Source: an uncultured Hyphomicrobiales bacterium (GTDB lineage Bacteria; Bacteroidota; Ignavibacteria; Kapaibacteriales; UBA2268). From it: a stretch of 64,000 bases of DNA. Both the position numbers and the translations under genes were made by a program. The stretch spans positions 81 through 64,080 of the forward strand of contig CAZOBD010000004.1 of the NCBI GenBank assembly GCA_964577665.1, written 5' to 3'. This document shows, piece by piece, positions 9,862-60,855 of the stretch (within the stretch, counting starts at the first letter, position 1; each line of letters starts with the position of its first letter). The notes below the pieces were generated by a model. It was not told where the DNA came from. It saw only the letters and a program-made list of their open reading frames with translations, and ran no database searches.

Positions 9862-10030
9862 ATTTAGGAAAATCACACAAAGGGATGATTATTTTTAAGC
9901 AAGATGTCAGACACCTTTGAGGTGTCGGACATCTGATTATCAAAAAACATCCCCTCTTGAGAGCAATGACCTAACAATTGGAGGAAAAAGATGTCCAACA
10001 TCTGGCAGATGTCGGACATCTGAAGGGCAA
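9862..10030. repeat. Intergenic palindromic repeat cluster: one copy of module C (…CCATGATTTAGGAAAATCACACAAAGGGATGATTAT…, minus orientation) plus two GATGTCNNACATC-type hairpins (9903-9933, 9990-10020)
   Basis: Module C recurs at 12790-12835, 12955-12998, 13673-13715, 37506-37548 and 53140-53180; hairpin arms recur at 37287, 49363, 56667 and 60817. Confidence 0.7.
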
Positions 10031-10404
10031 AGTAAAAAATAAAAAGATAAAACAATATTTTAAATTATCTTAATCATTGGAATATTCTACTGAGATGATT
10101 CCGAGTCTAACTGATTTTTCTAATATTTAAAAGTTAAGAGCGTCTATAATTATTATTAGTTTAACCATAGACTTAAATATGAAGAAAAAGAATAAATGCT
10201 GTATGAAGGGATGCAAGAACTGTAAAATTTTTAAAAAACTGAAAAAAAAGAAGAAAAACAGTTGATTATTAAAAATCCTTACTAATATTTTAAAGTATTT
10301 CTTTTATCGTAAATTTTAAAAAAAATAATTCCTTGTAAAATCCAATATTTTTCCTTATATATGGATATTATAAATGTTAATTTTTTGTTAACGGAGGACT
10401 CCTT

Positions 10405-12549
10405 ATGAAAAAATTATTTACCTTCATTGCTGTTTTCATTCTTTTCTCGTTTAACGCATCATTTTCTCAGGATATTGTCAGCACTGATCCACAGCCGAGA
10501 AACGTAGTGCTCGAAGAATTCACGGGCATTTACTGCGGTTTTTGTCCCTACGGACATGAAATAGGTCAGGCAATACAGGACAATAATCCCGGCAGAGTAG
10601 TACTGATTAATATTCATGCAGGCAGTTATGCCAATCCGCAGCCCGGAAGCGGGCATCCTGACTTCAGAACACCCTATGGCGACGCGCTTGTGCAGATGTC
10701 TAATCTTGCCGGTTACCCGGCAGGTCAGGTCAACAGACAGCTTTTTTCAGGAGAAGAATATCAGCAGCAGCGAGCCGGAGCTCTTGCCCTAAGCAGAGGC
10801 GGATGGGAAGCTGCTTCTAACGTAATTCTGGCGGATGGTAATTCTCCCGTGAATATTGGAGCAAAAGTTGAAAGAAAATCCCTTACTACACTTGAAATCA
10901 CTGTTGAGCTGTACTACACATCTGATGTTTCCCAAAACAACAAACTTAATGTAGTCCTTCTGGAAAACGGCTTCGTAGGTTATCAGGGAGGCAGTAAAGG
11001 CGGCGATGATTATGTACATAATCATATTTTGAGAGACATGATTACAGGACAGTGGGGCGAAGTCATATCAGAGACTTCGCAGGGTTCCCTTGTTACAAAA
11101 ACATACACTTACGAACTTACCGACAGGGTCGATCCCTTGGGAAGCGAGCTTCAGCTTGCATTTTTCGTTACAGGAGCGGACAACAAATATATTTATACCG
11201 GTACCGGGATTGAAGTTCCCGGAATAGAACCTAATGCTAAACTTACTACAACCGATGAACCATTAAAAGCAATTTTCAGCGGAAGCACGGTGGAAAAGAC
11301 TGCTGCCCTTGAAAATATTTCCGATATGGAAATCACATTTGATATTACCTTGAGTGCAATTTCGGAAACTGCTGCCGGATGGCAAGCCGGACTAAAATAT
11401 CCTGACATTACTCCTCTTACTTTGGCACCGGGTGAATCCCGTGAAATATCTTATTACATTACATCAGATAATGAATACGGTAAAATGAGCGTAGAGCTGA
11501 ATGCCGCAGAGAAGGAAACTGAACTTATGCTTTCCTATTCCGACGGACTGAAAGTAATCTCAGCGGATGCAGAGAATTTCCTTGTGGCAGATAAAGCCGA
11601 AGAATCTTATTCCATCAAGCAGTTTATTCAGGATGCAGGATATTACGATTTTCTCGAAATATATCCTGAAGAATACGAATTTATAAGCAATCTTATGAGT
11701 AATGCAGAAACGATTGTATGGGACGCCGGCGTAAATTATTCTCTTACAACAAATGACATTAACTCACTTATTAATAAGATGAACAATGACGTTAATCTGC
11801 TGATTTTAGGAAACAGAATAATCGGCAATCTTAGCGGAGCAAATGCACTCGGATTTTTCGGAACGAATTATCTGGGTTATTCCACTCAGGGATACGGAAG
11901 CTCTCCCTGGCGGGTATGGCTGTCGGGAGTAAGCGGCGACCCCATAACAGGCTCTCTTGGGTTGAATTTTGAAGGAAACCTCATACAATGGCTTATTTCT
12001 ATAGTTGAAATAACCGATCCTCAAACTACAACACCAATACTGCATTTCACAAATACCGGCAAAAGAGTTATTTATAATTCACAAACTCAGACGAGAGATA
12101 CTTTTGATATTAAAGGGGAAGATGCCGTTTTCGGAGTGAAAATTGATAAAGGAGCTAGCAAACATGTGCTAATAGGTATTACTCCTTATGTTATCGTTGA
12201 TCAAAACAGAAGAGAAATAATTGTAAGAGAAGCCCTGAACTGGATAAACGGCGTAGTTGATGTAGAAGACAACTCTTTGAATGCATCATCAAATGTTTCT
12301 GCAAGTCCGAATCCTGCTGAGAATTTTCTTAATCTCCGTTATAATATAACCGGAACTAAATCTTCGCAGGTATCAATAAAAGTGGTTGATAATTTCGGCA
12401 GAATAGTTGCCTGCACTAAAACAATGCACCTTAATCCCGGAAATTATACGGAATATCTCGACCTGAGAAAAATTTCCGCCGGATCATATAATGTATTGGT
12501 CAGCATAAACGGCAAAACCGAGACAGAAAAGATAATTGTAATAAAATAA
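10405..12549 (+). CDS. Secreted protein with T9SS (Por) C-terminal sorting domain; N-terminal region with thioredoxin-like CxxC (EEFTGIYCGFCP), possibly Omp28-like
   Basis: Signal peptide; CGFC motif near N-terminus; C-terminal ~80 aa beta-sandwich tail (…SPNPAENFLNLRYNI…SYNVLVSINGKTETEKIIVIK) typical of T9SS CTDs. Confidence 0.55.
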   Translation: MKKLFTFIAVFILFSFNASFSQDIVSTDPQPRNVVLEEFTGIYCGFCPYGHEIGQAIQDNNPGRVVLINIHAGSYANPQPGSGHPDFRTPYGDALVQMSNLAGYPAGQVNRQLFSGEEYQQQRAGALALSRGGWEAASNVILADGNSPVNIGAKVERKSLTTLEITVELYYTSDVSQNNKLNVVLLENGFVGYQGGSKGGDDYVHNHILRDMITGQWGEVISETSQGSLVTKTYTYELTDRVDPLGSELQLAFFVTGADNKYIYTGTGIEVPGIEPNAKLTTTDEPLKAIFSGSTVEKTAALENISDMEITFDITLSAISETAAGWQAGLKYPDITPLTLAPGESREISYYITSDNEYGKMSVELNAAEKETELMLSYSDGLKVISADAENFLVADKAEESYSIKQFIQDAGYYDFLEIYPEEYEFISNLMSNAETIVWDAGVNYSLTTNDINSLINKMNNDVNLLILGNRIIGNLSGANALGFFGTNYLGYSTQGYGSSPWRVWLSGVSGDPITGSLGLNFEGNLIQWLISIVEITDPQTTTPILHFTNTGKRVIYNSQTQTRDTFDIKGEDAVFGVKIDKGASKHVLIGITPYVIVDQNRREIIVREALNWINGVVDVEDNSLNASSNVSASPNPAENFLNLRYNITGTKSSQVSIKVVDNFGRIVACTKTMHLNPGNYTEYLDLRKISAGSYNVLVSINGKTETEKIIVIK

Positions 12550-12589
12550 GTCAAGTATTACTCTTTAAAAATGGGGCTGTATTTAACTA

Positions 12590-12975
12590 CGGTCCCATTT
12601 TTTTTTCATCTGTTTATTTTATGCCCCACCCTAACCCTCCCCAAAGGGAGGGAATTCAATGATATTGCTCCCTCCCCTTGGGGAAAGCCGGGGTGGGGTC
12701 TCATACGGTTTTTCATCTCATTCCCAAACTCCGATTTGGGAATGTACTTTTCTTTCAAAACTCTGTTTTGCATTAACTCGTAAACAATCAACTCCTTGTG
12801 TGATTTTCCAAAATCATGGGCGTTTCATCTGTTTATATTCGATCCCTCCCCGGTACTCCCTTACAAGAAAAGGAAGGAGAAATATTATTGAAGCCCCTTA
12901 TTTATAAGGGGGTTTGGGGGATCTCTTCTATCGATTTCATTTTTTTTCCAAATATTCATCTCCTTGTGTGATTTC
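12590..12975. repeat. Mosaic of palindromic repeat modules: G/C-rich hairpin (CCCCACCC…GGGTGGGG with nested CCCTCCCC…GGGAGGG), module A (TCCCAAACTCCGATTTGGGA), two copies of module C
   Basis: 12700-12780 is the reverse complement of 53181-53260; modules shared with loci at 13522, 37160 and 53140; unusually G+C-rich for this AT-rich genome. Confidence 0.75.
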
Positions 12976-13521
12976 TTAAATCATGGGGGTTTCATATAGC
13001 ACACTCTGCCTTGTGCAGTTAATATTCAAACTGAGAATATCTGGACGAGAGTAATGTCCTGAAGGATCGAAATTTTGTCTTTCTCTTAAGACGGAGCTTA
13101 AATCCAGTTCAGCCGTGATAAATGCTTCTTTTTCACAAACAGGTTCGATTATCCATGATCCATCAGGGGCAGCAATGCAGGAACCGCCGCCGGCAGGCAT
13201 ACTTTTCATTTTAGATTTTATCAAAGATGCATGAGGCAGTTCGTCTGAAATATTTTTTGTAAAGAGTATTGAAGAAGCAGAAATAACAAAACTCCGCGAC
13301 TCTTTTGCAATAAAGCGGGCAATGTCATAAGTATTTTCCAGACTGCCGGGCCAGACAGCTATATGGACATTTATACCCTGAGCATACATTGCGCTTCTTG
13401 CCAGCGGCATCCAGTTTTCCCAGCAGTTAAGCCCCCAGAGAGTAAAACCGTCAAGCTTATGTGCCGCGATACCGCTGCCGTCACCTATCCCCCATACGAG
13501 TCTTTCTTCATAAGTAGGCAT
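12976..13521 (-). pseudogene. Truncated nitrilase / carbon-nitrogen hydrolase (C-terminal part only, catalytic Cys block [11 protein letters not shown] present, N-terminal Glu/Lys blocks missing)
   Basis: 181-aa ORF begins at conserved internal [12 protein letters not shown] block; the ATG lies exactly at the edge of repeat module B and the last 5 codons are encoded by repeat module C. Confidence 0.6.
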
Positions 13522-13724
13522 GGGGTTTCAGATGGACTCCACTTTTAAAGTGGAGTCCATCTACGAATAAATTTTTCACCATCCCCTTGGGGAGGGCTTG
13601 GGTGGGGTCTCTTACGGTTTTTCTTTTACAATACGATTTTTCCTTCAATATATGGCAAATCTACCAAAAATAATCATCCCCTTGTGTGATTTTCCCAAAT
13701 CATGGTTGTTTCATTTAAAGAAAT
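13522..13724. repeat. Mosaic repeat cluster: module B perfect palindrome AGATGGACTCCACTTTTAAAGTGGAGTCCATCT, G-rich module (CCCCTTGGGGAGGGCTTGGGTGGGG), module C
   Basis: Module B recurs at 37467-37499; G-rich module recurs at 12678 and (inverted) 53395-53440. Confidence 0.75.
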
Positions 13725-17009: not shown

Positions 17010-17109
17010 GATATTACCCTCTTATAAAAATCTTTTTTACTGCAAAAAGTCCGATAATGCGGTGCATTGAGCGATAGTCGAAATGCAGTGAAATATTTGA
17101 TAGAAAAAA

Positions 17110-22887: not shown

Positions 22888-24255
22888 TTAACCCTCCTTC
22901 ACCACTTTGTAAGTTGTTACATTGCCACCACATATAAGTCTTATAAAGTAAATGCCGTTAGGGTATAAGGAAAGATTAATTGTTAAAGAACTACTGTCTA
23001 TTAAATCTTCCAATAAAATAGTCCCATTGTTATTGATTATTTCATAATATTGATTAGTGCTACTGCAGTTAACTTCAATATTAATTGTTCCATTAGTTGG
23101 ATTGGGATAAAAAGTACTATCAACAATAGAATCATCATTAATGCTACTAGGTTCCCATCGAGCTTTTACAACAGCGCAGATATCATACTTACCCGCTCCA
23201 ATATATTTATTGTTTTTTGAAACATCTAAGGACTTTGCTGAAGTAATAATATTATTGTACTGATATGTAATTATCTCATTTAATATGTCATATACAAATA
23301 CATCTCTATAAGCAGAAATACCAATAACTAAATATCTATCATCAATTGAATATGCAATCGATCTAAAGCAGGTATCTTTTTTAGTTATGGTCTGTTTTAA
23401 TTCTCTTTTTTCAAAATCCCATATTTTTACGGGTCCACCTGCAGATGCCAGATATTTTCCGTCGTGGGAAAAACAGATGTCCCTGATAGCGTAATCGTGT
23501 GTGCCGAGAATACCTTCGTATTTCATTGGGTTTGTATTAAAAATGTGAATTGGGCTATTTGAACCATTTTGATAAAATGTGCTAACAACAAAGTGTTCCT
23601 CGTCAGGTGAGAATTTTATTTTTCCATACTCCGTATCGGTTGATTGATATGCAATTTCATCAGTTCCTAAATCCCAAATACATATTTTACATTTTAATTG
23701 CCCGATACGTGCAACAACAGCTAAGTATTTGCTACTCGGTGAAATATCTATTGATTTAAAGGAAACCGAATCTTCATCAATAGTGAATGTTTTAACTAAT
23801 TTACCTGTTTCCGTTTCAAATAAATATGCAGAGTTATTTTTATAGCTGCCGTCATAATAGTAGAAGTTACCTCCTGCAACTGCAATAATGCTGCCGTCAG
23901 AATTAAAGTCAACACAATTGGTATAATTTGGCTGCTCAAATTCTCTAATCGAGTCTCCTGTCTCAACATCAAAAAGCTTCGGGTTCCTGTAATCAGCCGC
24001 AACCGCAAGATACCTGCTGTCGGGAGAAAACTTTACGCGGTTTATTTGTACACCTAATTCCTTTACCCACAGCACATCGGGGTCATCCTGTGCAAAAGCA
24101 GGAAGAGAAAGAAGAAGTAAAAGCGCCGCCGCCAGAAGAAGGGATGATCCCCCCAGCCCCCTTATAAATAAGAGTGTGTTTGAATTGCTGTGCTCTGATT
24201 TTGTTTTCAGAGCTGCCTTCTCCACCTTTACCAGAAAACTTTTTTTTGTAAACAT
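22888..24255 (-). CDS. WD40-like/beta-propeller repeat protein with T9SS C-terminal sorting domain (paralog A)
   Basis: Repeated …(K)FSPD(S/E)RYLA…/…FSHDGKYLASAGG…KIWDFEKRELK blocks; CTD …FYPNPTNGTINIEV…IYFIRLICGGNVTTYKVVKEG; start placed at MFTKKSF (conserved with paralog B) rather than ORF-track 24285. Confidence 0.6.
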   Translation of the reverse strand: MFTKKSFLVKVEKAALKTKSEHSNSNTLLFIRGLGGSSLLLAAALLLLLSLPAFAQDDPDVLWVKELGVQINRVKFSPDSRYLAVAADYRNPKLFDVETGDSIREFEQPNYTNCVDFNSDGSIIAVAGGNFYYYDGSYKNNSAYLFETETGKLVKTFTIDEDSVSFKSIDISPSSKYLAVVARIGQLKCKICIWDLGTDEIAYQSTDTEYGKIKFSPDEEHFVVSTFYQNGSNSPIHIFNTNPMKYEGILGTHDYAIRDICFSHDGKYLASAGGPVKIWDFEKRELKQTITKKDTCFRSIAYSIDDRYLVIGISAYRDVFVYDILNEIITYQYNNIITSAKSLDVSKNNKYIGAGKYDICAVVKARWEPSSINDDSIVDSTFYPNPTNGTINIEVNCSSTNQYYEIINNNGTILLEDLIDSSSLTINLSLYPNGIYFIRLICGGNVTTYKVVKEG

Positions 24256-24382
24256 AGTTTTTCCTTTTATTTTTTCAAAAAACACACCAATTATAAATAT
24301 AATAAAAAATAAGATAAATAGTTACAAAATAAAAAACATAAAGAATCGTAAAATTATTAAAGCTACAAAATAAGGAATTTTT

Positions 24383-25203: not shown

Positions 25204-26565
25204 TTATCTCTTCACAATAATTTTAATTGTTTTAAAAAAATCGCTGCAAGAAATATTACAGAAGTAAGTGCCTGATGATAATCCGTCTGCATTTATGTTC
25301 ATTGTATTTAAACCTGCTTCAAGATACCCCTCAAATACTTTTTTAACTAATTGACCGTTGATATTATTTAAATCAATATTAGTTATGCCGTTATGTGGAA
25401 GGTTGAAACTTATAACAGCTTCATTTGTTATTGGGTTAGGATAAATAATGCTGTTGTTTTCATTAAAAGGTTCCTCAATAATACTTGGTACCCATTTTGC
25501 ATTTAATAATAATACTCTATATCCATAACCGGAACCAATATATTGATTATCTGATGAAACATCTAACGATAGTGGTGTACCTTTTACAGAATTAAGATGA
25601 TAAACATATTCAGTATTATTTATATCATATATAAAAACATCTCTATAAAATAAAAAACCCATAACAAGAAAATTGTCATCCATAGAATATGCAATCGATC
25701 CAAAGCCGGTATCTTTTTTAGTTATAGTCTGTTTTAATTCTCTTTTTTCAAAATCCCAAATCTTAACATCTCCCGCTGCAGATGCCAGATATTTCCCGTC
25801 GTGGGAAAAACAGATGTCGGCGATAGCATAATCATGTGAGCCGAGAATACCTTCGTTTTTCATTGGGTTTGTAGAAAATACATAGATATAGTTGGTTTTT
25901 GATTCTGGATATGGGTAGGTTTGGCATATAACGAAATGCTGATCATCAGGTGAAAATACAACTTTACTTATATACTGATAATTGCTTTGATATATTATTT
26001 CATTTGAAATTAAATTCCAAATTTTTATTAAATACCTATTTGTTCCACTTTTAAAAACAGCCGCTAATAATTCACCATTGTGTGAAATATCAATTGAAGT
26101 AACATAAACTGAATCTTCATTCAGATCAATTTTTTTTAATTCATCTCCAGTTTCCACACTATATATATTGATGTAATCATTATATCCGGCGCTTGCTAAA
26201 AGAGAGCCGTCATCAGTAAAATCAAGTGTATTTGTTCCTCCACCAATAAATTCTCTAATCAAATCACCTGTTTCTACATCGAAAAGCTTCGGATTCCTGT
26301 AATCAGCCGCAACCGCAAGATACCTGCTGTCGGGAGAAAATTTCACGCAGTTGATTTTCACACCTAATTCCTTTACCCACACCACATCGGGGTCATCCTG
26401 TGCAAAAGCAGGAAGAGAAAGAAGAAGTAAAAGCGCCGCCGCCAGAAGAAGGGATGATCCCCCCAGCCCCCTTATAAATAAGAGTGTGTTTGAATTGCTG
26501 TGCTCTGATTTTGTTTTCAGAGCTGCCTTCTCCACCTTTACCAGAAAACTTTTTTTTGTAAACAT
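25204..26565 (-). CDS. WD40-like/beta-propeller repeat protein with T9SS C-terminal sorting domain (paralog B)
   Basis: First ~75 codons and ~210 bp of 5' region essentially identical at DNA level to paralog A (23975-24262 vs 26275-26572); second near-identical tract 23380-23530 vs 25695-25845; CTD …IYPNPITNEAVISFNL…TYFCNISCSDFFKTIKIIVKR. Confidence 0.6.
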   Translation of the reverse strand: MFTKKSFLVKVEKAALKTKSEHSNSNTLLFIRGLGGSSLLLAAALLLLLSLPAFAQDDPDVVWVKELGVKINCVKFSPDSRYLAVAADYRNPKLFDVETGDLIREFIGGGTNTLDFTDDGSLLASAGYNDYINIYSVETGDELKKIDLNEDSVYVTSIDISHNGELLAAVFKSGTNRYLIKIWNLISNEIIYQSNYQYISKVVFSPDDQHFVICQTYPYPESKTNYIYVFSTNPMKNEGILGSHDYAIADICFSHDGKYLASAAGDVKIWDFEKRELKQTITKKDTGFGSIAYSMDDNFLVMGFLFYRDVFIYDINNTEYVYHLNSVKGTPLSLDVSSDNQYIGSGYGYRVLLLNAKWVPSIIEEPFNENNSIIYPNPITNEAVISFNLPHNGITNIDLNNINGQLVKKVFEGYLEAGLNTMNINADGLSSGTYFCNISCSDFFKTIKIIVKR

Positions 26566-26639
26566 ATAAACCTCCACGGGATAAATTTTCAATTTTGCAA
26601 TTTACAATTTTCAATCAATTTAACAATGATTCAATTTTC

Positions 26640-27159: not shown

Positions 27160-27395
27160 CGACCCCTCCCCGTCCCTCCCTTACAAGTAAGGGAGGTAGC
27201 ATTAATTTTTAATTTTTCAATTATCTTATAAAATAGTTAATATTTTTTTAAAATCAAAATAATATAATCTGATACATACGAACAAAAGCCGCACTCAGCA
27301 AAGAATGCGGCTTTCTAACTATCAGTTTAGGGGAGTTCTAAATATTGCTAAACTGTCATTCCTGCATTCGCAGGAATGACAGTTTTTAGAACCCG
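27160..27395. repeat. Intergenic hairpins: CCTCCCTTACAAGTAAGGGAGG (27170-27200) and a ~60-bp imperfect palindrome GTTCTAAATATTGCTAAACTGTCATTCCTGC-ATTC-GCAGGAATGACAGTTTTTAGAAC (27330-27392)
   Basis: Direct reading; G/C-rich CCCTCCC motif shared with the other mosaic loci; sits between two minus-strand genes, so may act as terminator/insulator. Confidence 0.6.
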
Positions 27396-32887: not shown

Positions 32888-32975
32888 ATTGAGTCTGCCT
32901 AATATGGGCGAACACATAGGTTCGCCCATACAGAACAACGTAGGGGCAGACCGGCTTGTCTGCCCTGAAAACTTT
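32888..32975. repeat. Repeat module E: hairpins GGGCGAACACATAGGTTCGCCC and GGGGCAGACCGGCTTGTCTGCCC
   Basis: Near-identical copy (with an extra GGGCGAACACGCAGGTTCGC unit) at 37172-37280. Confidence 0.7.
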
Positions 32976-35664: not shown

Positions 35665-37041
35665 TTATTGATTTCCCAAAATGGTTTTTTGACTGGTATA
35701 TTCCGATTGTATTTCTTCAACTGCGTCAGGTCCGTGCTTGATTTTCCTATCGAGCAAAAATAAAAACAGAAAAAGAAGCAGCAGGTATATCAGTGTAAAA
35801 AGTATCAGGGAGAATAGAACTTCTCCATAAGTAACGGATTTTGAAACAGCGTCGCTCGTTCTAAGCAAGCCGTAAACTATCCAGGGCTGCCTGCCTATTT
35901 CCGCAGAAGCCCAGCCGAGCTGGTTTGCGGCATGAGGAAGCAGTATAGAAAAAATAAGAATTACCCAGTACCATTTAGCCTTGAAAAGTTTTCCCGTAAT
36001 CCAGAGCAGAATACCCAGAAAAGCTATTGCAATGATTGCCATCCCGATTGCCACCATTATGTGATAAGTTTGAAAAACTACGTTTACAGGCGGCCTTTCG
36101 TCTTCGGGAAAAGCATTCAATCCCGTTATTGGAGCTTCCCAGTCCCAGTGGGTTAAAAAGCTCAGCATCCCGGGGATTTTTAGACCTCCTATTACTTCCT
36201 GCTTTTCTTCATCTACCCATCCCCATAAATACATGTCTCCTACTCCGCTTGAGTCATAGTGCGCTTCAAAAGCGGCAAGTTTTGCAGGCTGTGTTTCGGC
36301 TACCTGCACTGCGCCTGCATGGCCTGTTGTAAGCTGCGACAGCGAAGCAAAAGCAACAATTATCAAAGCAATCTTCAATGACTGTTTTGCAAAATCGAGG
36401 TGTTTGTTTTTCAAAAGATAGTAGGCGCTTACGCTGAGAACCAGAAAGCCTCCTGCAAGCCAGCAGCCTGAAAGAGTGTGCGTAAGTCTCTCCATAGTGG
36501 AAGGATTAAAAACAACTTCCCAGAAATCCAGTATTTCTGCCCTTTGCATCAAGCCTTCGCCAACAATGTGATGACCGGCGGGGGTCTGCTGCCAAGAGTT
36601 TGCAACAATTATCCACACTGCGCTGAGATGCGCTCCGAAAGTAACCATAATAGTCGCGAAAAAGTGCATTCCGGGCTTTACTTTATCCCAGCCGAAAACC
36701 AGAATGGCAAGAAATCCGGACTCAAGGAAAAAGGCGAATATTCCTTCTGCGGCAAGCGCGCTGCCGAAAACGTCACCCACATAGCGGGAATATACCGACC
36801 AGTTCGTGCCGAACTCAAATTCCATCACTATGCCTGATGCCACTCCTACGGCAAAAGTGAGTGCAAAGACCTTTACCCAGAATTTGGTCATTGTTTCGTA
36901 GAGTTTATTTTTAGTTACCATATACATGCCTTCCATTATTACCATTATTATGCCGAGCCCGATGCTCATTGGCGGGTAAATGTAATGAAAGCCTATGGTT
37001 ACGGCAAATTGTATTCGGGCGAGCATTTCTGCATCTAACAT
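35665..37041 (-). CDS. cydA: Cytochrome bd ubiquinol oxidase subunit I
   Basis: 458 aa; MLDAEMLARIQFAVTIGFHYIYPPMSIGLG… and Q-loop region typical of CydA. Confidence 0.85.
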   Translation of the reverse strand: MLDAEMLARIQFAVTIGFHYIYPPMSIGLGIIMVIMEGMYMVTKNKLYETMTKFWVKVFALTFAVGVASGIVMEFEFGTNWSVYSRYVGDVFGSALAAEGIFAFFLESGFLAILVFGWDKVKPGMHFFATIMVTFGAHLSAVWIIVANSWQQTPAGHHIVGEGLMQRAEILDFWEVVFNPSTMERLTHTLSGCWLAGGFLVLSVSAYYLLKNKHLDFAKQSLKIALIIVAFASLSQLTTGHAGAVQVAETQPAKLAAFEAHYDSSGVGDMYLWGWVDEEKQEVIGGLKIPGMLSFLTHWDWEAPITGLNAFPEDERPPVNVVFQTYHIMVAIGMAIIAIAFLGILLWITGKLFKAKWYWVILIFSILLPHAANQLGWASAEIGRQPWIVYGLLRTSDAVSKSVTYGEVLFSLILFTLIYLLLLFLFLFLLDRKIKHGPDAVEEIQSEYTSQKTILGNQ

Positions 37042-37159
37042 AACCTGCTCCTCTTTTAGATGTGAATGATAACGATGTTTTCACGAAACAGCGTTTTCCA
37101 TTATTTTGAACAAAAATAGCTTTTTTCAGCACAATATGCAAATTTTTTTAGGGAGAGAG

Positions 37160-37580
37160 TTCAATGGGTGAACACGAAGGTTCGCCACTACATGCCAAAC
37201 AGAACAACGTAGGGGCAGACCTGCGTGTCTGCCCTGAAAAAGAACACGCAGTTCTATGGGCGAACACGCAGGTTCGCTACATTAAAGATGTCCAACATCT
37301 TTTTCCTCCATACTGTGCATCCCCTCCCCAAGAGGGGATTAAAGGGTGTGTTCCTTATACGTGAGATTCTGAAACAAGTTCAGAATGACATCCATGATTT
37401 CTTTTTGCATCTCATTCACAAACTCCGATTTGGGAATGTACTTTTCTTTCAAAACTCTGGGTTTTTAGATGGACTCCACTTTAAAAGTGGAGTCCATCTA
37501 CGAATAATCATCCCTTTGAGTGATTTTCCCGAATCATGGATGTTTTGTCTGAATTTTAAGTCTAAATGCCGAAGCTGCAG
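37160..37580. repeat. Largest mosaic repeat cluster (~420 bp): modules E, GATGTCCAACATC hairpin, G/C-rich CCCCTCCCCAAGAGGGGA, F (CTGAAACAAGTTCAG), A, B, C concatenated
   Basis: 37310-37395 is the reverse complement of 53395-53490; module B identical to 13530-13563; module E to 32905-32970; module C to 13673 etc. Confidence 0.8.
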
Positions 37581-37746
37581 CAAAATTTCTGAGATTACTT
37601 TCTTTTATCAAAGACGGATATACATTTCTTAAGGAAAAATCCGTTGCTACTGCTTTACAAACTTTTCACAAATAAAAAATAAACAATTATTCTGCAAAAT
37701 TCGTAAAAAAATAGTGAAAAACAGCCTGCCGAAAAGAAACAAATCG

Positions 37747-40700
37747 TTAATAGCCTGCTATTATAAGTTTTTTACTTAAACTGCCGCTTTTTGTTTTCAG
37801 AACTGCTATGTAAACTCCGTCGGACAAATGGGATAAATCTGTCTGAAAAGTATTGAATCCGGCTTTGGAGTAATGATTTTCCAATAAAGTTGAAACTTTA
37901 TTACCAATAGTATTAAACAACTCTAAAGTTATTTCGCCCGGAGAGGGCAGATAATACTGCATAGAAACTATGTTTTCTGCCGGATTGGGATACATCTCAA
38001 ATTTAATATTACTGTCGAAAAATTGGTTTATTCCTGAAACCTCTCCGTCCAGCACTGCAAGGTAACTTCCGAGTCCGTTCATAATAGTGCTTACGTAGTT
38101 TCCCGCAGTATCTACCCTGCCGCCTAAATTTTCCCATGCTCTTTTACCGGTATTCCACATAAAAACACATATATTTTCTTCATTTTTATCATCAGGTATG
38201 ATATCGTCATATTTAATCTTGATGATATTTTTTCCGGTTAAACCGTTCATAGAAAGCGGGAATGCAGAAATGGAATATAAAGGGCTGACTTTCAGAAAAC
38301 CATCGTTGAAACCTTCGGGAATTGTCGAAAATTGGGATGATGCAATACCGAATTTGTCAATCACTTTATTTTCACTGCTTATGTAAAGAGTGCATAAACC
38401 GCTGTTTTCAAATATTTTCTGCTGCTTCGGATAAAATCCGTAATCAAACGGAACTTTAAACTCGTTCTCCTCGTTGTCTTTTGCGCTGATGAACATTTTT
38501 CCTTCATCCATATAATTTTTATTCACCTCGGCGGTATAATAGTTTTCCTTTTGGGCAGCCATTTTTATGTCAAAGGAAGATTTTTCCAAGACAGAAGTAA
38601 GAGTTCCGCCGCCGGGGTACATATTCTCCATATAAAAATCAATGATCAGGGAGCCGTCTGCCTGAATATCCCACTGGGGCACTATTCCGAATTCCCCGGC
38701 AACTTTTTTCAATGTCTGTTTCTTCTCTAAAATTTGATTATCTTTTTTCATTTTACTTACAGCATCAATGTAAAGGGTTGAAAATTCATCTTCACCCGTC
38801 CATGGGTTCTGGTATAAAACCCATATTACATCGCCGATGGCAGCGCCGACCACTTTTATTTTGCCGTCTTCTCTTGTTTTACCCTGATCCTTGAAAAGAG
38901 CTTCGCTGTCGCTAATCATTTTTACATGAGAGACCATTGCTCTGTGTGCGAGAGAGCCTGATTCACTATAAATTGTAAGGTCTAAATCACCCGTTTCAAC
39001 ATCATCAATAAAATCGTGAATTTCAAAATCGAGAAGATGGTCAACTTCAAAACCGTATCCTCTTGATGATCTTCCGTCTCCGGGTCCCCTTTCGGGAGCA
39101 CTTCTGCCGTCTTCTTCGGGAGTTCTTATGGGGCAGGGTATCCCCTCGTAAGTTCCTTCCCGCTCCTGATTCCACTGCGACCAGCAGTCCATTCCGTTTA
39201 CCGACCATTGCTCGGTTATTTTATATGAGTTATCGGGATAGCGGTCGGGGGTGGACATTTCGCTGCTCCAATTGTCGCAATAGCTTCTGTCGCAGTCCAT
39301 AAAGCCGAAATTGTAATGCCTGAACACTGAATTCCCCTCATCATCTTCATATTCGTCTTTGAATCCCATCATGTAATGTCCCAGCTCATGCCCTATCATT
39401 CTGGGATTTTCCGGAGCATCTCGGAGGTACCAGTCATCTTCAGATAAAATGTAAATGGTATTTGCTTTGCTGTCAAAAAATCTTCTCGGAAGATGAACAT
39501 GACCTTCATCAGGATCAAAAATACCGTTTACCCGGGCGCAGGGCCATTGTGTGTTGTTTGCATAAAATCTAATGTCACAGTCGTCCCAGTGCTGTTTATT
39601 ATCGTAAACGACCACTTTGTTGAAAAAAAGATGTCCGTCGGTTACATCAAAAAGATAGTTCGATGCATCTTTGAACCAGTCCTCTATAGCCTCAAGCACT
39701 TCCCTTTTGGCATCCCACTCGACGGATACAATCAAATTATACTCGTAAGTTCCTGAAATCATATAAATATCCTGAGGTCTGTCTTCATAGTAAATATGAT
39801 AGAAGGGAATAGATTTGCGAAAATCAAGATTATTCAAAGAAACTTTGTACATAACATTGTCAACGGCTGAATGTCCCGGTTTGGCAGCGGGTTCCTCATG
39901 CAGGTACTCATCCAGATATATCCTCAGAAAATGCCCCCGTTCAATATCACTTTTCCTGAGAGCAAAAGCACCCTCGCTGCTTGTATAATATTCGCCAAGA
40001 TATTCCTGAGGAAATCCATAATGAATATGTTTCCAAACTCTGAAAGGTCTGCCGGGTATCCTGATGCTGTCTATATCATGGATACGTATTGACCAGAACA
40101 TATCGGAAAAAGGGGCAGCCGCAGCCAATAGACCCGACTGCGTAGAAATCAATATTCTTTCTATATCAATAAACATATCGCTGATGTCTGCATTAATGCC
40201 TGAGTTGTCGGCATCTATCCAGCTTGCGCCATACTTAGAATGAGACACTTTGTCTTTCCCGAAAGCATACAATCCTTTATCTTTCTTAAATGTTATCTTC
40301 TTCAGTCCTGCGTCTTTATTGCCCGTAAGAGAAATTTTACCGTCCTTAATTTTGTAAACACCCTTGTCTGAAGCCGCAAACAAAGCATCATCAGATTCTG
40401 TTATGTCTTTAAAGACGGCATCTTCTTCGGTAAATTCTTCATACCAGCTCTTCCCGCCGGATTCACCCTGATATAATCCTTTTTTTCCGACGGGTACTGC
40501 CCAGATTATATCTTTCTTATCAACGAAAATCTTTTCAAAATTGTTAGACCAAGTATTTATTTCCTGCCATTTTGCTCCATTGTCCATACTGTAGAAAAGT
40601 TTGTTCATTTTGGCATCTTCAAGCAAAGCATAAATGTATCCTTTTGAATCTTTATCCAATGAGATATATTTGTGATAATCCTTCCTGATGTTTTTCCAAA

Positions 40701-48278: not shown

Positions 48279-49337
<1,059 letters not shown>

Positions 49338-49362
49338 AAACTATCTGAAAAGAATAATTAAA

Positions 49363-49410
49363 ATGTCCGGTATAATTACATGCCGGACATTTTTTTATTT
49401 TTTATTTATT
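49363..49410 (+). terminator. Rho-independent terminator after gap: ATGTCCGG-N12-CCGGACAT hairpin + T-run
   Basis: Perfect 8-bp stem followed by TTTTTTTATTTTTTATTT; stem belongs to the GATGTCCGGCATC palindrome family. Confidence 0.7.
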
Positions 49411-53021: not shown

Positions 53022-53139
53022 ATTTACACTTTTGAAAAGGCAAAAACGTAATATTTTATAGAAACTTCCATTTTTCAGGAAGATTTACGATATTTATAAA
53101 GCGGCTGATATCTTGAAATAAATAGATTAATAATAAATC

Positions 53140-53490
53140 AGCCATGATTAGGGAAATCACACAAGGAGATGATTATTTTAGAGTTAATGCAAAACAGAGT
53201 TTTGAAAGAAAAGTACATTCCCAAATCGGAGTTTGGGAATGAGATGTAAAATGTCATTCAAAGTACATTCCCAAATCGGAGTTTGGGAATGAGATGTAAA
53301 ATGTCATTCAAAGTACATTCCCAAATCGGAGTTCGGGAATGAGATGTAAAATGTCATTCTGTCCCTGTGATGAACTTGTTTCAGTATTGTTTCAGAATCT
53401 CACGGATGAGAGGGACACACCCCTTAATCACCTCTTGGGGAGGGGATATTCTTAACTTGAGATGCTGAAACAAGTTCAGCATGACAGCCA
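53140..53490. repeat. Mosaic repeat cluster incl. module C (inverted), 3x50-bp perfect tandem array (53211-53360) each with module A palindrome TCCCAAATCGGAGTTTGGGA, G-rich module, module F
   Basis: Direct reading; 53181-53260 = reverse complement of 12700-12780; 53395-53490 = reverse complement of 37310-37395. Confidence 0.8.
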
Positions 53491-53526
53491 AACGATTTTC
53501 AAAGGTAAAATACAAAAAATAAACAG

Positions 53527-53745: not shown

Positions 53746-53758
53746 TCGGATTTATTAT

Positions 53759-55015: not shown

Positions 55016-55024
55016 GGTTTTATT

Positions 55025-55751: not shown

Positions 55752-55755
55752 AATT

Positions 55756-56640
55756 ATGGCAACAATTATCGATGGAAAAGTAATTTCAAAAGAAATTAAA
55801 GAAGAAATCAAAGAAAAGACAAAACTTTTGCTGGAAGAAAAGGGTATCCGCCCCGGTCTGGCAGTTCTGCTTGTCGGGGAAAATCCGGCATCTCAGGTGT
55901 ATGTACGTTCAAAAGAAAAGACAGCTTCCGAGCTCGGCTTTTATTCTCTGGTTGAAAGAGTGCCGGATACAATTTCAGAAAAAGAAGTCCTGGACTATGT
56001 GCAGAAATGGAACAAGGATGAAAAAATTCACGGCATTTTGGTACAGCTCCCGCTGCCGAAGCATATCAACGAAAGCAAGGTAGTTAACTCCATCAAGCCA
56101 TCTAAAGACGTTGACGGTTTTCATCCCGAAAATATCGGCAGGCTGGTAATAGGTCTTCCCGGTTTTATTCCCTGCACCCCCCGCGGCATTATGGAAATGC
56201 TGAAACGCACTGAAATCGAAACTTCCGGCAAGCATGTGGTGGTTGCAGGCAGAAGCAACATTGTCGGCAAGCCGATTGCAAATCTGCTCTATCAAAAAAA
56301 TGAAAATGCAAACTCTATTGTAACAATAGTTCATACCGGCGCAAGAGACATACGCCCCTATACTTTGCAGGCAGATATATTAATTGCGGCTATGGGTGTA
56401 CCCGAAAGAATAAAGGCTGAAGATGTAAGAAAAGGCACAGTCGTAATAGACGTCGGCATAAACCGCGTGGAAGACCCGACCCGCGAAAAAGGCTACCGGC
56501 TCACCGGCGACGTTGCATACAAAGAAGTATGCAAAAAGGCATCTGCAATTACACCCGTGCCGGGAGGAGTAGGCGTAATGACCGTGGCTATGCTCATGCA
56601 GAACACTTATGACGCCGCGGCAGGTCTTTTGGAGTATTGA
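55756..56640 (+). CDS. folD: Bifunctional methylenetetrahydrofolate dehydrogenase/cyclohydrolase
   Basis: 294 aa; MATIIDGKVISKEIKEEIKE…PGLAVLLVGENPASQVYVRSK… and GRSNIVGKP NADP-binding region. Confidence 0.9.
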   Translation: MATIIDGKVISKEIKEEIKEKTKLLLEEKGIRPGLAVLLVGENPASQVYVRSKEKTASELGFYSLVERVPDTISEKEVLDYVQKWNKDEKIHGILVQLPLPKHINESKVVNSIKPSKDVDGFHPENIGRLVIGLPGFIPCTPRGIMEMLKRTEIETSGKHVVVAGRSNIVGKPIANLLYQKNENANSIVTIVHTGARDIRPYTLQADILIAAMGVPERIKAEDVRKGTVVIDVGINRVEDPTREKGYRLTGDVAYKEVCKKASAITPVPGGVGVMTVAMLMQNTYDAAAGLLEY

Positions 56641-56666
56641 TTTTGTACAATTACAGATTGATTGCA

Positions 56667-56708
56667 GATGTCCGGCATCACTTAGATGTCGGGCATCTTT
56701 TTTTTTCA
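56667..56708 (+). terminator. Rho-independent terminator after folD: GATGTCCGGCATC-ACTTA-GATGTCGGGCATC + T9
   Basis: Near-perfect 13-bp stem followed by TTTTTTTTT. Confidence 0.7.
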
Positions 56709-56806
56709 ATTTGCTTTTAAAATCCAATTATGATTATTTCGTTAAAACAAATGGAGTAAGAAAATAATAGAACAGAGATTTAATATATTGTAAAGGAGGT
56801 GATACC

Positions 56807-57523
56807 ATGAACAATGAACTAAATCAGAATTTTTATGTAAATCAAACAGTAACGGCAGATATTGAAGAGGCGCAGAAAGCTTTTCTTTCAAAGGTTTATG
56901 CCTGGATGACCGGCGGACTGCTCATTACCGGCTTAACCGCGTGGTACACTGCTTCCAGCGGTTTAGTAAATTCAATTCTGCAAAGCGGCTTGTTTTTCCC
57001 GCTACTGCTTGTCCAGCTTGCATTTGTTTTCGGATTATCCGGTTTTATTCACAAAATAAGCAGTTCCCTTGCAGGAATATTGTTTCTGGTATATTCACTC
57101 CTGACAGGTTTGACATTTTCTACAATATTTCTGGCATATACCGCACAGTCCATCCAAACAGTATTTTTTATCTCAGCGGGAATGTTTGCGGCTCTAAGTT
57201 TTTACGGTTACGTAACAAAGAAGAACCTTTCGGCTGTGGGCAGTTTTATGTTCATGGGGCTTATAGGAATAATAATAGCTATGATTGTTAACATCTTTAT
57301 TCAAAGCTCCATGCTGTATTTTGTAATAAGTGTAATCGGCGTTATTGTGTTTGCCGGACTTACGGCTTATGATACTCAGAAGCTGAAGGAAGTTGCAGTA
57401 ATGCAGCTTGGCGAAGGGGAAGAAATAGCTGCAAAAGGTGCAATAATAGGCGCTTTGAAATTATATTTGGATTTTATCAATTTATTCCTTTTCTTGCTGA
57501 GAATTTTTGGCGGCAGAAGATAA
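56807..57523 (+). CDS. Bax inhibitor-1/YccA family membrane protein
   Basis: 238 aa, 7 TM; N-terminal …FLSKVYAWMTGGLLITG… typical of BI-1/YccA. Confidence 0.7.
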   Translation: MNNELNQNFYVNQTVTADIEEAQKAFLSKVYAWMTGGLLITGLTAWYTASSGLVNSILQSGLFFPLLLVQLAFVFGLSGFIHKISSSLAGILFLVYSLLTGLTFSTIFLAYTAQSIQTVFFISAGMFAALSFYGYVTKKNLSAVGSFMFMGLIGIIIAMIVNIFIQSSMLYFVISVIGVIVFAGLTAYDTQKLKEVAVMQLGEGEEIAAKGAIIGALKLYLDFINLFLFLLRIFGGRR

Positions 57524-57542
57524 TTTTTGCGGAGCGTTTATT

Positions 57543-58769
57543 ATGGAAGATGTTAATATATTATTTGCGGTAGAAGCGGAACACTTGATTTTGAACGGCT
57601 TCTTTGATGAAGCCGTTTCCCTTTTAAAGAAAGGTATTGAGAAATATCCCGATTACCCTGCTGCTTATGCTATTTTGGCAAAAGCCTACGATAAATCCGG
57701 TGATTCAGGGTCAGCAGAAGAAACCATAAATGAAGGCATAGGGAAATTCCCTGATAACACTTCTATCGTAAAAACAAAAGAAAGACTGGAATCATCTAAA
57801 CAAAATGAATTTGAAGAAGAACATACACCGGAAGATTCAACCGAATGGCAAGAAATTCCCGAAAATGAAGATTCCGGAAAACACTCTGAATCCGATGAAG
57901 AAGAAATTTCCGGCAATGAAGAATTATCAGAGCCTGACAGCTATCCCGAATCAGATGAAATTGAACATCCTTCTGCCGACAGCAGCGAAACTCCGGAAAT
58001 TTTAGTAGAAGAAACAGCCTCTGATGCGGAAACAATAGAAACAGAATTTGAAAAAATCGATGACGAAGATTCCGGAGCTGATGATGAAGACACACAAAGT
58101 ATTGATGAGCCTGAGCAAGAGGAATTAATTTCAGATGAACAAATTGAATTCGATGATTCGATTTTAAATGATATTATGGAAGAAGAATCTGAGGAAGCAG
58201 GTGAAATTTTACCGGAAGAGAATACGGATTTTGATGAACCATCACTTGTTGAGCAGATAAATGAAGAAACAGATACCGATAGTATATTTCTTCCGGCAGG
58301 TTTCTTGCTTGAATATCAGGAATTTGACAAAAAGCCGGACACTGACCGTCCTTACAATTCCCGAAATATTGATACTATTCCCGGATTTGAATTCTTAGCC
58401 GGAGAGATAGAATCATTCCAAACGGCAGCGCCTGCCAATTCTTTTGCAAACGCTGATATAACTGAAAAAGACTATGATAATATGGACGAAAAAGCAAAAG
58501 AATTAACAACCCTTTCTAAAGAAATAAATGAAAGCAGGAAAAAGATTGAAGAAAGTAATACGGAAGAATATGACAGCATACAAGAAGAAAACAATGTAAA
58601 GAAAGAAAAGCCGCCTGAAATAGCTACCGAAACTATGGCTAAGATACTGGTGGAGCAGGGAGCTTTTGAAAAAGCAGTCGAAATTTACCAAAAGCTGATT
58701 GACAAAACGCCGGAAAAAGCTGAAGAATACGACAGCAGAATTCAAGAACTTCTTTATAAGAGAGAATAA
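57543..58769 (+). CDS. Hypothetical TPR-like protein with ~200-aa highly acidic low-complexity middle region
   Basis: TPR-like helices at both ends (…YPAAYAILAKAYDKSGD…, …GAFEKAVEIYQKLIDKTPEKAEEYDSRIQELL); D/E-rich core. Confidence 0.45.
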   Translation: MEDVNILFAVEAEHLILNGFFDEAVSLLKKGIEKYPDYPAAYAILAKAYDKSGDSGSAEETINEGIGKFPDNTSIVKTKERLESSKQNEFEEEHTPEDSTEWQEIPENEDSGKHSESDEEEISGNEELSEPDSYPESDEIEHPSADSSETPEILVEETASDAETIETEFEKIDDEDSGADDEDTQSIDEPEQEELISDEQIEFDDSILNDIMEEESEEAGEILPEENTDFDEPSLVEQINEETDTDSIFLPAGFLLEYQEFDKKPDTDRPYNSRNIDTIPGFEFLAGEIESFQTAAPANSFANADITEKDYDNMDEKAKELTTLSKEINESRKKIEESNTEEYDSIQEENNVKKEKPPEIATETMAKILVEQGAFEKAVEIYQKLIDKTPEKAEEYDSRIQELLYKRE

Positions 58770-58927
58770 TCGCATACGGCAAAAATTGATAAACCGTTTA
58801 TTTTTAATGAATATAATTAAATAAAATTAATTGTTAGTTAAAAATAATTGTATAAATTATATTTTTCGTATTTACGAATATTTAAATTATTTTAACATAA
58901 CAGTTTTATTTCAGGGCTTTATTAACA

Positions 58928-59311
58928 ATGAATTTTAGCTTTTTAAAAAAGAAAAAAAGAAACCATATAAATTATCTTGAGCTTACTCCCTTTAGAAAAC
59001 TTGAACACATCGAAAGAGATGACGGCTTGGTGGATGTGCTGGTGCCTAAGTTTAAAAATGAATTTTTCATAGGTCTGATACCACCAGGCAAGAGCAGGCA
59101 TATACGCGCTAATCTGGATGAAATCGGCACATCTGTTTGGCTTTTAATTAACGGAGAGAATAAAGTCCTTAATATTTCTAAAACATTACAGGAAAAGTTC
59201 GGCGACCGCGTCGAGCCGGTAAACGACAGAGTGACTAATTTTTTAACGCAATTATATCAAAATGGTTTTATTTCATTCAACGAATTTACGAAAGGATCAA
59301 AAAATGGGTAA
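58928..59311 (+). CDS. PqqD-like / RiPP-recognition-element (RRE) family small protein
   Basis: 127 aa; pattern …ANLDEIGTSVWLLINGENKVLNISKTLQEKFGD…VNDRVTNFLTQLYQNGFI… matches the PqqD fold signature (NETA.ILELIDG…DV..FL..L…G.I). Confidence 0.45.
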   Translation: MNFSFLKKKKRNHINYLELTPFRKLEHIERDDGLVDVLVPKFKNEFFIGLIPPGKSRHIRANLDEIGTSVWLLINGENKVLNISKTLQEKFGDRVEPVNDRVTNFLTQLYQNGFISFNEFTKGSKNG

Positions 59312-60764
59312 AGTACTCGGCGGACTGGAACCGCAAAAAGTATGGGATTATTTCGAAGAAATCTGCCAGATACCAAGGCCTTCCAAAAAGGAAGATAAAA
59401 TTGCAGCCTATATGTTAGACTGGGCGCGCAAGCACAATTTTGAAACACAAAAAGATAAACTCGGAAATATAGTTATACGGAAAAAAGCCACTGTCGGCAT
59501 GGAAAACCGTAAATCTGTCTGCATACAAGGGCACATTGATATGGTCTGCGAAAAAAATGCAGATGTTGAATTTGATTTCGATAATGATCCGATACAACCT
59601 TATATTGACGGCGACTGGGTAAAAGCTAAAGGCACAACCCTCGGCGCCGATAACGGCATCGGTGTAGCTATGGGTATGGCTATTCTTGATTCGGATAACA
59701 TCCCCCACCCTGCCATGGAACTGCTTTGCACTCTTGACGAAGAAACAGGACTTACAGGCGCCATGCAGCTCGGTTCAAATCTGCTGGATTCTGATATCTT
59801 GATAAATCTGGATTCGGAAGAAGACGGACATTTCACTATCGGCTGCGCAGGCGGACTTAACACTTCAGGTTCATTCAAATATGATTCTGATTTCGTACCG
59901 GAAAACACTGCCTCTTATCAATTATCTGTGAAAGGACTTAAAGGCGGACATTCCGGCATTGAGATACACGACGGCAGAGGAAACGCCATTAAGATGATGA
60001 ACCGTCTCTTAAAAAATCTGACACATGAGTTTAACATCAGTCTTTCTTCTATTAACAGCGGCAGCAAGCACAATGCTATCCCCCGTGAAGCTTTTGCAAC
60101 TGTTGTTGTCCCGACTGTTACTGAAAAGGATTTTAATGAATTTATCAAAAGCTTTGATAAAACTTTAAAAAACGAATGGAAAACGAAAGAACCCAACATT
60201 AACGTTTCGGCAGAAAAAACAGACATGCCCAAGCGTGTAATGACCGAAGATTTTCAGACAAGGCTGCTCAATTCCTTTTATGCAATGCCTCACGGCGTTA
60301 TCCGCATGAGCCCTGACATCGCAGGTCTCGTACAGACTTCGACTAACTTTGCCATTGTCGAAACCCGCGAAGACGAAGTTTATGTTCTCACAAGTCAGAG
60401 AAGCTCCATCGAATCCGAAAAAGCCGACATCGCCAGTATGGTAAAAGCATCTTTGGAACTCGGAGGCGCTCAGGTAAAACTTGGCGACGGCTATCCTGCG
60501 TGGACTCCGGATGTAGAATCACCAATTCTGAAAACAGCCGTTAAAGTTTACAAAGACCTGTTCGGCAAAGAACCTGTCATCGAAGCAATTCACGCCGGTT
60601 TGGAATGCGGTTTGATAGGCGAGAAATATCCTCACATGGATATGCTGTCCTTTGGACCAAATCTGGAAGAAGTACATTCACCCGACGAAAGAGTGCAGAT
60701 TTCCACAGTCGATAAAGCTTGGAAACTCCTGCTTGCCGTATTAAAAAGCGTGCCGGAGAAATGA
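59304..60764 (+). CDS. pepD: Aminoacyl-histidine (Xaa-His) dipeptidase, M20 family
   Basis: Near-colinear with E. coli PepD (…GTTLGADNGIG…, …LKGLKGGHSG…, …AIPREAFATV…, …IHAGLECGL…); ATG at 59304 preferred. Confidence 0.85.
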   Translation: MGKVLGGLEPQKVWDYFEEICQIPRPSKKEDKIAAYMLDWARKHNFETQKDKLGNIVIRKKATVGMENRKSVCIQGHIDMVCEKNADVEFDFDNDPIQPYIDGDWVKAKGTTLGADNGIGVAMGMAILDSDNIPHPAMELLCTLDEETGLTGAMQLGSNLLDSDILINLDSEEDGHFTIGCAGGLNTSGSFKYDSDFVPENTASYQLSVKGLKGGHSGIEIHDGRGNAIKMMNRLLKNLTHEFNISLSSINSGSKHNAIPREAFATVVVPTVTEKDFNEFIKSFDKTLKNEWKTKEPNINVSAEKTDMPKRVMTEDFQTRLLNSFYAMPHGVIRMSPDIAGLVQTSTNFAIVETREDEVYVLTSQRSSIESEKADIASMVKASLELGGAQVKLGDGYPAWTPDVESPILKTAVKVYKDLFGKEPVIEAIHAGLECGLIGEKYPHMDMLSFGPNLEEVHSPDERVQISTVDKAWKLLLAVLKSVPEK

Positions 60765-60816
60765 TATTATGATGAATTTCTCTTCCGAATTTGATTTGGA
60801 GGATATTAGTTTATGT

Positions 60817-60855
60817 GATGTCCAACATCTTTCTGGTGTTGGACATCTTTTTTTC
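60817..60855. terminator. Bidirectional rho-independent terminator between convergent pepD and mutS2: GATGTCCAACATC-TTTCTG-GTGTTGGACATC + T8
   Basis: 12-bp stem, T-run on + strand; same palindrome family as 56667 and 49363. Confidence 0.65.

Follow-up and report, generated by a model that had tools for sequence, protein, structure and literature searches.

Dispersed 33-nt hairpins behind genes of an uncultured bacterium: probable REP elements of a divergent RAYT subclade

Near-identical hairpins lie shortly behind several unrelated genes in a 64,000-nt stretch of contig CAZOBD010000004.1, from an uncultured bacterium labelled Hyphomicrobiales; this whole 64-kb stretch is called the window below. 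We consider it very probable that these hairpins are repetitive extragenic palindromic (REP) elements, and that their family is cognate to one subclade of REP-associated tyrosine transposases (RAYT, or TnpA_REP, enzymes of the HUH-Y1 kind) found in Ignavibacteriota, Kapabacteria, Bacteroidota and some Chloroflexota. The hairpins form a repeat family, their arms covary, they lie outside genes and near gene 3′ ends, and in other genomes they are associated with RAYT genes. That the present genome holds, or formerly held, a cognate RAYT would follow by extension from those other genomes.

A sequence-only reading of the window had noted six sites, and all six are present where it placed them: four full hairpins, one half unit and one degenerate relative, with the common core AGATGTC-N-GACATCT. 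The motif is enriched as well, GATGTCNNACATC having five exact matches in the window against 0.00 expected and, with one mismatch allowed, 17 matches on both strands against 0.65 expected, a count that 0 of 100 shuffles reach. All six sites fall within 8.4 kb of intergenic DNA, with zero in the window's 55.6 kb of coding DNA. A covariance model, R1, built from an alignment of 60 family members, detects four full copies in the window at 44-54 bits (E 1e-9 to 1e-12). The first, at 9902-9934 (AGATGTCAGACACC-TTTGA-GGTGTCGGACATCT; 50.9 bits; RNA fold -20.9 kcal/mol, z -4.8), starts 46 nt 3′ of the stop codon of a putP-like symporter gene, and the second lies close behind it at 9989-10021 (AGATGTCCAACATCT-GGC-AGATGTCGGACATCT; 54.3 bits; -19.0 kcal/mol). 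The third, at 56666-56698 on the + strand (44 bits; -23.1 kcal/mol, z -7.3), has G-U pairs and a 5-nt loop and lies 25 nt 3′ of the folD stop codon. The fourth, at 60816-60848 on the + strand (44.1 bits; -21.3 kcal/mol on the + and -16.9 on the - strand), lies between the convergent genes pepD and mutS2, 16 nt from the mutS2 stop codon. The degenerate relative at 49360-49393 on the + strand (AAAATGTCCGGTAT-AATTAC-ATGCCGGACATTTT; 17.9 bits, E 0.02; -21.1 kcal/mol), 22 nt 3′ of the gap stop codon, is only a probable member of the family. The sixth site, a single 15-nt unit AAAGATGTCCAACATCTTT at 37285-37301 (16.8 bits, E 0.04; -5.8 kcal/mol), is a REP half or singlet, embedded among GTAG-type REPs and further repeat modules that together form a mosaic. 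The names already given to the neighbouring genes (the putP-like symporter, gap, folD, pepD and mutS2) were confirmed. Folds of the hairpin copies range from -17 to -23 kcal/mol, with z from -4.6 to -7.9. A search of the whole window against Rfam 15 at gathering score gave no family match. The window has a G+C content of 39% and encodes several proteins sorted by the type IX secretion system (T9SS), which places its source among organisms of the Bacteroidota/FCB type.

The hairpin is not confined to this contig. We scanned GTDB, one genome per species, with a pattern that fixes the shared letters only and does not require complementarity, and at least 84 loci were obtained. Among the matches listed, those from low-G+C metagenome-assembled genomes (MAGs) of the Fibrobacteres-Chlorobi-Bacteroidetes (FCB) type and from some Chloroflexota MAGs are nearly all perfectly complementary 33-mers of the form AGATGTCCAACATCT-NNN-AGATGTTGGACATCT. 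This perfect hairpin of 33 nt, with a 15-bp stem and a 3-nt loop, is the ancestral unit of the family. Its sources among the matches listed are Ignavibacteria MAGs, one of which (JAERMQ01) gave at least 19 loci, Bacteroidetes MAGs, low-G+C MAGs labelled Hyphomicrobiales and a few Chloroflexota MAGs of 62-68% G+C, so that the hosts span 26-68% G+C and several phyla. Matches of the single-strand pattern in high-G+C genomes (Duganella, Hydrogenophaga and others) were excluded, being coding-sequence matches with no hairpin complementarity. Relatives with an 80% identical FolD carry no copies of the family in about 55 kb, and the synteny around folD is not conserved; the distribution is therefore patchy, as expected of a REP/RAYT system. 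A search of 2.9 million viral contigs with the hairpin pattern gave 0 matches and hence no evidence for carriage by phages, and a literature search with the literal arm sequences returned unrelated PCR primers only.

Nine of the MAG loci (L006, L010, L012, L020, L031, L047, L054, L055 and L059) bear the label 'uncultured Hyphomicrobiales' at 26-38% G+C. Such MAGs carry this hairpin family together with a RAYT (P0123) like those of Ignavibacteria and Kapabacteria, and the Hyphomicrobiales label therefore looks wrong. P0123 comes from assembly CAZCLJ01, which is also the source of six hairpin loci.

The position of the copies relative to genes was counted for the loci below 50% G+C among the at least 84 matches listed. 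There, 58 copies are intergenic and 5 lie inside called open reading frames (ORFs). Spacers between convergent genes, whose enrichment the sequence-only reading had raised, do prove enriched, holding 18 of the 45 classifiable copies against an expected 19%, and divergent spacers hold 4 of the 45 (chi-square p ~0.001). The nearest facing stop codon is at a median distance of 26 nt, and most copies lie within 3-50 nt of a preceding stop codon. As REP elements at large are distributed in this way, the context alone does not show termination.

The hairpin structure is seen in the alignment of 60 copies, in which 98.2% of cells are paired. Double-sided stem changes number 48, against 15.6±2.9 in shuffled alignments, with 0 of 500 shuffles equalling the observed value and with three covarying stem positions; the paired-arm variants include CCAACATC/GATGTTGG, CCGACACC/GGTGTCGG, CAGACACC/GGTGTCTG and CCTAC/GTAGG. 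These data bear on the idea that the sites are operators for a dimeric regulator binding double-stranded DNA, or for a nucleoid protein, each site being two adjacent 15-bp palindromes. In fact, some arms are 15-bp palindromes (AGATGTCGGACATCT) at a spacing of 18 bp, as is common for helix-turn-helix dimers. Yet the arms covary for pairing with each other, their self-symmetry is often lost (CCAACACC/GGTGTTGG is an example), and the sites follow stop codons and are under-represented in the divergent spacers, where promoters lie; we regard such operators as improbable. The earlier description of every arm as a mini-palindrome holds strictly for GATGTCGGACATC, other arms being partial (GATGT-CCA-ACATC) or non-palindromic (GATGTCAGACACC). 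Likewise, the suggestion of a protein-binding site can be kept only for a RAYT, the probable binder, which would act on single-stranded DNA in its folded form, and not as a double-stranded operator, against which the compensatory stem changes speak.

The link to RAYT genes is illustrated by L077, a metagenome chromosome of 4.5 Mb and 31% G+C, in which the hairpins accompany an ORF with an HUH motif (CLMPTNFHFLV) and a tyrosine motif (YIHQNPVR), both of which are those of IS200-like Y1 enzymes. The sole NCBIfam match of this ORF is NF047646, REP-associated tyrosine transposase (E 4.6e-16). One hairpin lies 100 nt upstream of it, five lie in tandem at its 3′ end, and another lies in frame within it, directly after the HUH motif, where it is translated as KDVQHFESVGHL. 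Homologues of the ORF number 574 at E ≤ 1e-10, from Kapabacteria, Ignavibacteria, Bacteroidota and Delongbacteria; several were named 'REP element-mobilizing transposase RayT' by the Joint Genome Institute (JGI), and the HFHFL and YIHQNP motifs are invariant in our RAYT alignment A2. In many of these homologues, too, a translated hairpin follows the HUH motif at that place, where the RAYT genes of this clade (P0122-P0192) have one to four in-frame cognate hairpins of 33 nt, or 11 codons, the copy number varying from gene to gene. Moreover, the peptide encoded by the hairpin tracks the protein downstream of it: DVQHLxDVGHL goes with ISRAMQTLQSSYTKAINKR, MDSTxEVESIY with ISDKIGILLSSYTKAINKR, and SSDDFxSSDxY with ISxQIAILLRSYxRAFN.

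Seven loci of the DVQH subclade were examined (L077, L068, L098/P0133, L099/P0123, L100/P0124, L101/P0172 and L104). R1 matches occur inside the RAYT gene in all seven (E 3e-14 to 1e-10). In five of them the gene is also bracketed by R1-type hairpins, of which those in L068 and the downstream one in L098 are weak matches; a sixth locus is flanked on one side. In L100 a weak partial match (15.7 bits) lies upstream of the true start, with nothing downstream. Sister RAYTs have their own, different 33-nt hairpins, likewise built on a 15-bp stem that closes a 3-nt loop and has an AGA…TCT foot: AGTCATCCGATGACT in L091, AGACTTCCGAAGTCT and AGACCTCCGAGGTCT in many JGI loci, AGACATCGGATGTTT in L102, and AGATGGACTCCACCT in L094 and L103. 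As each RAYT goes with its own palindrome, which is the defining pattern of a REPtron, we take the hairpin family to be a REP family. The proposal of the sequence-only reading that a dispersed REP-like element has been co-opted thus gains support, the palindrome being multi-copy and extragenic, and lying within and mostly flanking RAYT genes elsewhere.

Some further features of these loci were observed. The RAYT genes at L077 6868-7470 and L068 4906-5535 have an in-frame stop codon each and are probably pseudogenes. Tandem arrays of 5-8 hairpins adjoin the RAYT genes at L077 7449-7695 and at L099 3698-4100 and 4736-4977, with identical spacers of about 19 nt and a period of 52-53 nt; a reading of these arrays as CRISPR is ruled out by the identical spacers.

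A short, dispersed and perfect inverted repeat, found in tandem arrays in L077 and L099, could also be expected from a miniature inverted-repeat transposable element (MITE), namely the remnant of a DDE-type insertion sequence of which only the two terminal inverted repeats are left, with no relation to RAYTs. However, no target-site duplications flank the window copies, and no DDE transposase recurs beside the copies in the first 84 loci, where clustering of the neighbouring proteins showed only common secreted and T9SS-type families to recur, and no transposase. The only recurrent neighbour is the HUH-Y1 RAYT, and an origin from a DDE element appears to us improbable too.

Several points weigh against the assignment to a RAYT-cognate REP family. 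The RAYT homologues score 53-67 bits against NF047646, their only NCBIfam match, under its curated cutoff of 80, and their only PDB match, TnpA_REP 4ER8, is weak (E 0.0036). The GT[AG]G tetranucleotide at the foot is absent from the window copies, which have GTCG or GTTG inside and an AGATG…CATCT foot; GTAG occurs only in the rare CCTAC/GTAGG variant, in 3 of the 60 aligned sequences. No RAYT was found in the 64-kb window by tblastn with 120 RAYT homologues, the only matches being translated hairpins, nor by Pfam and NCBIfam scans of its small ORFs. In JAERMQ01, the MAG richest in copies, the single RAYT retrieved (P0178) is flanked by another hairpin family, and a RAYT cognate to the R1 family was not found there. 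The window copies are mutually 69-81% identical and at this divergence may be old and no longer mobile, and the terminator role discussed below is called from sequence form alone. Because the tag is absent, the NF047646 scores fall below the cutoff and the 4ER8 match is weak, the RAYT clade is placed as a divergent, not a canonical, member of the REP/RAYT kind. The specific hairpin family appears undescribed, and the kind of element is known.

By analogy with TnpA_REP of Escherichia coli and with IS200/IS605 elements, the RAYT would recognise the folded hairpin in single-stranded DNA, cut it and rejoin it, thereby seeding new copies into intergenic DNA, where they would persist chiefly just 3′ of stop codons. 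The patchy distribution and the varying number of copies inside RAYT genes would be indirect signs of such mobility. Once transcribed, each copy would form an RNA hairpin of -17 to -23 kcal/mol.

Do these RNA hairpins terminate transcription? T-runs follow three of the window sites only, and all three have a terminator-like form: T7 after 49393 behind gap, T9 after 56698 behind folD, and T7 after 60848 on the + strand, the pepD side, as had been read before. None follows 9934 or 10021; in the case of the copy at 9989-10021 there is a T-rich tail on the - strand only, where no gene ends. Ordinary Rho-independent terminators, evolved independently and alike in their stems by chance, with no repeat family or mobile origin, would account for 49360, 56666 and 60816, each being a stable hairpin with a T-run directly after a stop codon. 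Yet the motif is expected 0 times by chance, two copies are without any T-run, and the same 33-nt sequence occurs in many unrelated MAGs, inside and mostly flanking RAYT genes. The identity across genomes and the RAYT association refute chance likeness as a full explanation, and we consider it highly improbable.

Nor do the REP hairpins dominate termination in the window. Correctly oriented strong sites of hairpin plus T-run number four or five, of which the family supplies two or three (56666, 60816 and probably 49360), while those at 12567 and 12719 are outside the family and about 30 gene ends are without any. With T-runs at three of the six sites, the claim that this palindrome family supplies most intrinsic terminators was overstated. 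The family nonetheless contributes a large share of the strong hairpins: of the nine strongest in the intergenic DNA of the window, each with at least 14 pairs, it accounts for four or five and the sister family described below for two. Across genomes, at least five T in the 8 nt beside the stem, on either side, are seen in 40 of 71 copies against 8.9% of random 8-mers, and true T-runs are present in a minority of these 71. REP elements have been reported to attenuate transcription and to stabilise upstream mRNA (PMC3733652, PMC6006769). Judging from hairpin and T-run, intrinsic termination is the most likely role of the three copies behind gap, folD and pepD; those with no T-run are more likely to be 3′-end stabilisers only, or neutral.

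Relative to the consensus, the three copies at T-runs have diverged most: their loops measure 5-6 nt, and those at 56666 and 60816 have G-U pairs or a mismatch. This divergence would fit old, retained copies, which is speculative. Perhaps the RAYT-REP system of this Bacteroidota/FCB lineage has been domesticated as a supplier of terminators, copies abutting T-tracts being selectively retained and taking the place of ordinary terminators behind many housekeeping genes, such as gap, folD and pepD, although we think this unlikely. If this is true, mobile hairpins would make up a substantial and evolvable share of the genome's termination signals, and the diverged copies with 5-nt loops and G-U pairs at T-runs would be exapted survivors of a decaying REP population.

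DNA uptake sequences (DUS), such as those of Neisseria or Pasteurellaceae, are over-represented short motifs that often form inverted pairs doubling as terminators. Neisseria DUS pairs do share with our hairpins the single over-represented short motif in inverted pairs 3′ of genes and the terminator-like form with T-runs at some sites, but we consider a DUS highly improbable. DUS are confined to one family, occur commonly within genes and go with no transposase. None of this fits the present motif, which crosses phyla of 26-68% G+C and not one competent family, is nearly absent from coding DNA, is lacking in about 55 kb of close relatives, and is found both around and within a transposase gene, specifically by clade. 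An integron attC site, suggested by the likeness of GTCCAAC/GTTGGAC to RYYYAAC/GTTRRRY, was rejected as well, the variants GTCGGAC and GTCTGAC breaking the consensus and the element being far too short. A likeness to a conserved stretch of 23S rRNA (GATGTCGGCTCATC) is presumably a coincidence.

Other repeats share the window with this family. A sister REP family, AGATGGACTCCAC-TTTWAAA-GTGGAGTCCATCT with an AGATG…CATCT foot, is found by R1 at about 14 bits. One copy lies at 13530-13562 (AGATGGACTCCAC-TTTTAAA-GTGGAGTCCATCT; fold -26.1 kcal/mol) and a second at 37467-37499, within the intergenic mosaic at 37041-37747, in a repeat that is 94% identical to 13521-13570. The identical type, AGATGGACTCCACCT, flanks the RAYT genes of L094 (Kapabacteria, P0126) and L103. 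Canonical GTAG-tagged REPs (GTAGGGGCAGACCTGCGTGTCTGCCC; GGGCGAACACGCAGGTTCGC…TAC) occur at 32903-32971 and 37165-37280 and form, together with other families, a mosaic like the bacterial interspersed mosaic elements (BIMEs); as they stand beside two 33-nt families, the REP families of the window number three or more. A perfect 16-bp hairpin standing alone at 27350-27385 (AAACTGTCATTCCTGC-ATTC-GCAGGAATGACAGTTT), whose AACTGTC foot resembles hairpins flanking the RAYT of L127, may represent a further one.

On the 3′ side of dnaE, at 53210-53359, a 50-nt unit holding the hairpin CATTCCCAAATCGGAGTTTGGGAATG is repeated three times in tandem, and a 57-nt module of this repeat (96% identical) recurs in two more intergenic mosaics, at 12709-12765 and 37403-37459. 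A four-copy intergenic module, AATAATCATCCCCTTGTGTGATTTTCCCAAATCATGG, lies at 12782-12828, 12950-12996, 13668-13714 and 37502-37548, always adjoining other repeat modules. Repeats were seen inside genes as well. The minus-strand genes at 22888-24285 and 25204-26592 encode paralogous WD40 beta-propeller proteins with T9SS sorting tails, and their stretches of 85-95% nucleotide identity suggest a recent duplication or gene conversion. At 776-861, within the 3′ portion of the minus-strand gene for ribosomal protein S6, about five copies of a 12-nt tandem repeat, CTTTTTCTGGTG, encode a repetitive C-terminal tail.

REP and BIME elements, RAYTs and REPINs, the latter being inverted REP doublets, are well described (PMC3116915, PMC3733652). 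The family resembles the REP/BIME elements of E. coli with their TnpA_REP in being short, multi-copy extragenic palindromes at gene 3′ ends and between convergent genes, in forming mosaics with other repeat modules, and in the single-copy HUH-Y1 transposase gene flanked by cognate palindromes. It differs by having no 5′ GT[AG]G tag, by a 33-nt unit in which a perfect 15-bp stem bears a 3-nt loop, and by an AGA…TCT foot, whereas the E. coli REP stem is imperfect and GC-rich, and its RAYT clade is divergent from the E. coli TnpA_REP. With the REPINs of Pseudomonas fluorescens (Bertels & Rainey 2011, PMC3116915) it shares the inverted doublet that makes one long hairpin, and singlets, there seen as decay products, have a counterpart in the half unit at 37285-37301. 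Unlike our hairpins, REPINs have a longer spacer between the arms, consist of GTAG-type REPs and are passed on mainly by vertical descent in a single lineage, whereas the present family occurs in several phyla.

A further close description is that of TnpA_REP subclass 2.4, abundant in Cyanobacteria and Bacteroidetes, for which in-frame REPs inside RAYT genes have already been reported (Quentin et al. 2018, PMC6006769). Compared by description, the in-gene REPs of L077, L068, L098-L101 and L104 are like those of subclass 2.4 REPtrons. For that subclass the REPs are given as 'canonical long' or 'double foot' elements with a GTAG tag, from which the present hairpins differ, and both arms of this family and two sister-family arms match no REP entry in two supplementary tables of that study. 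The same work reports that some TnpA_REP classes have atypical REPs with no GTAG and that class 2 genes are taxonomically discontinuous (PMC6006769).

Taken as products of a REP/RAYT system, the nearly identical hairpins at the ends of unrelated housekeeping genes would be explained with no need for a special terminator code. Together with the sister families they would make up a coherent group of REP families, all 33 nt long and lacking the GTAG tag but sharing an AGA…TCT foot, each tied to its own RAYT subclade and spanning Ignavibacteriota, Bacteroidota and Chloroflexota, which GTAG-based annotation pipelines and REP finders would miss. In annotation, such hairpins should accordingly be labelled as REP repeats, and their presence should not by itself be read as evidence for terminators, small ORFs or regulatory sites.

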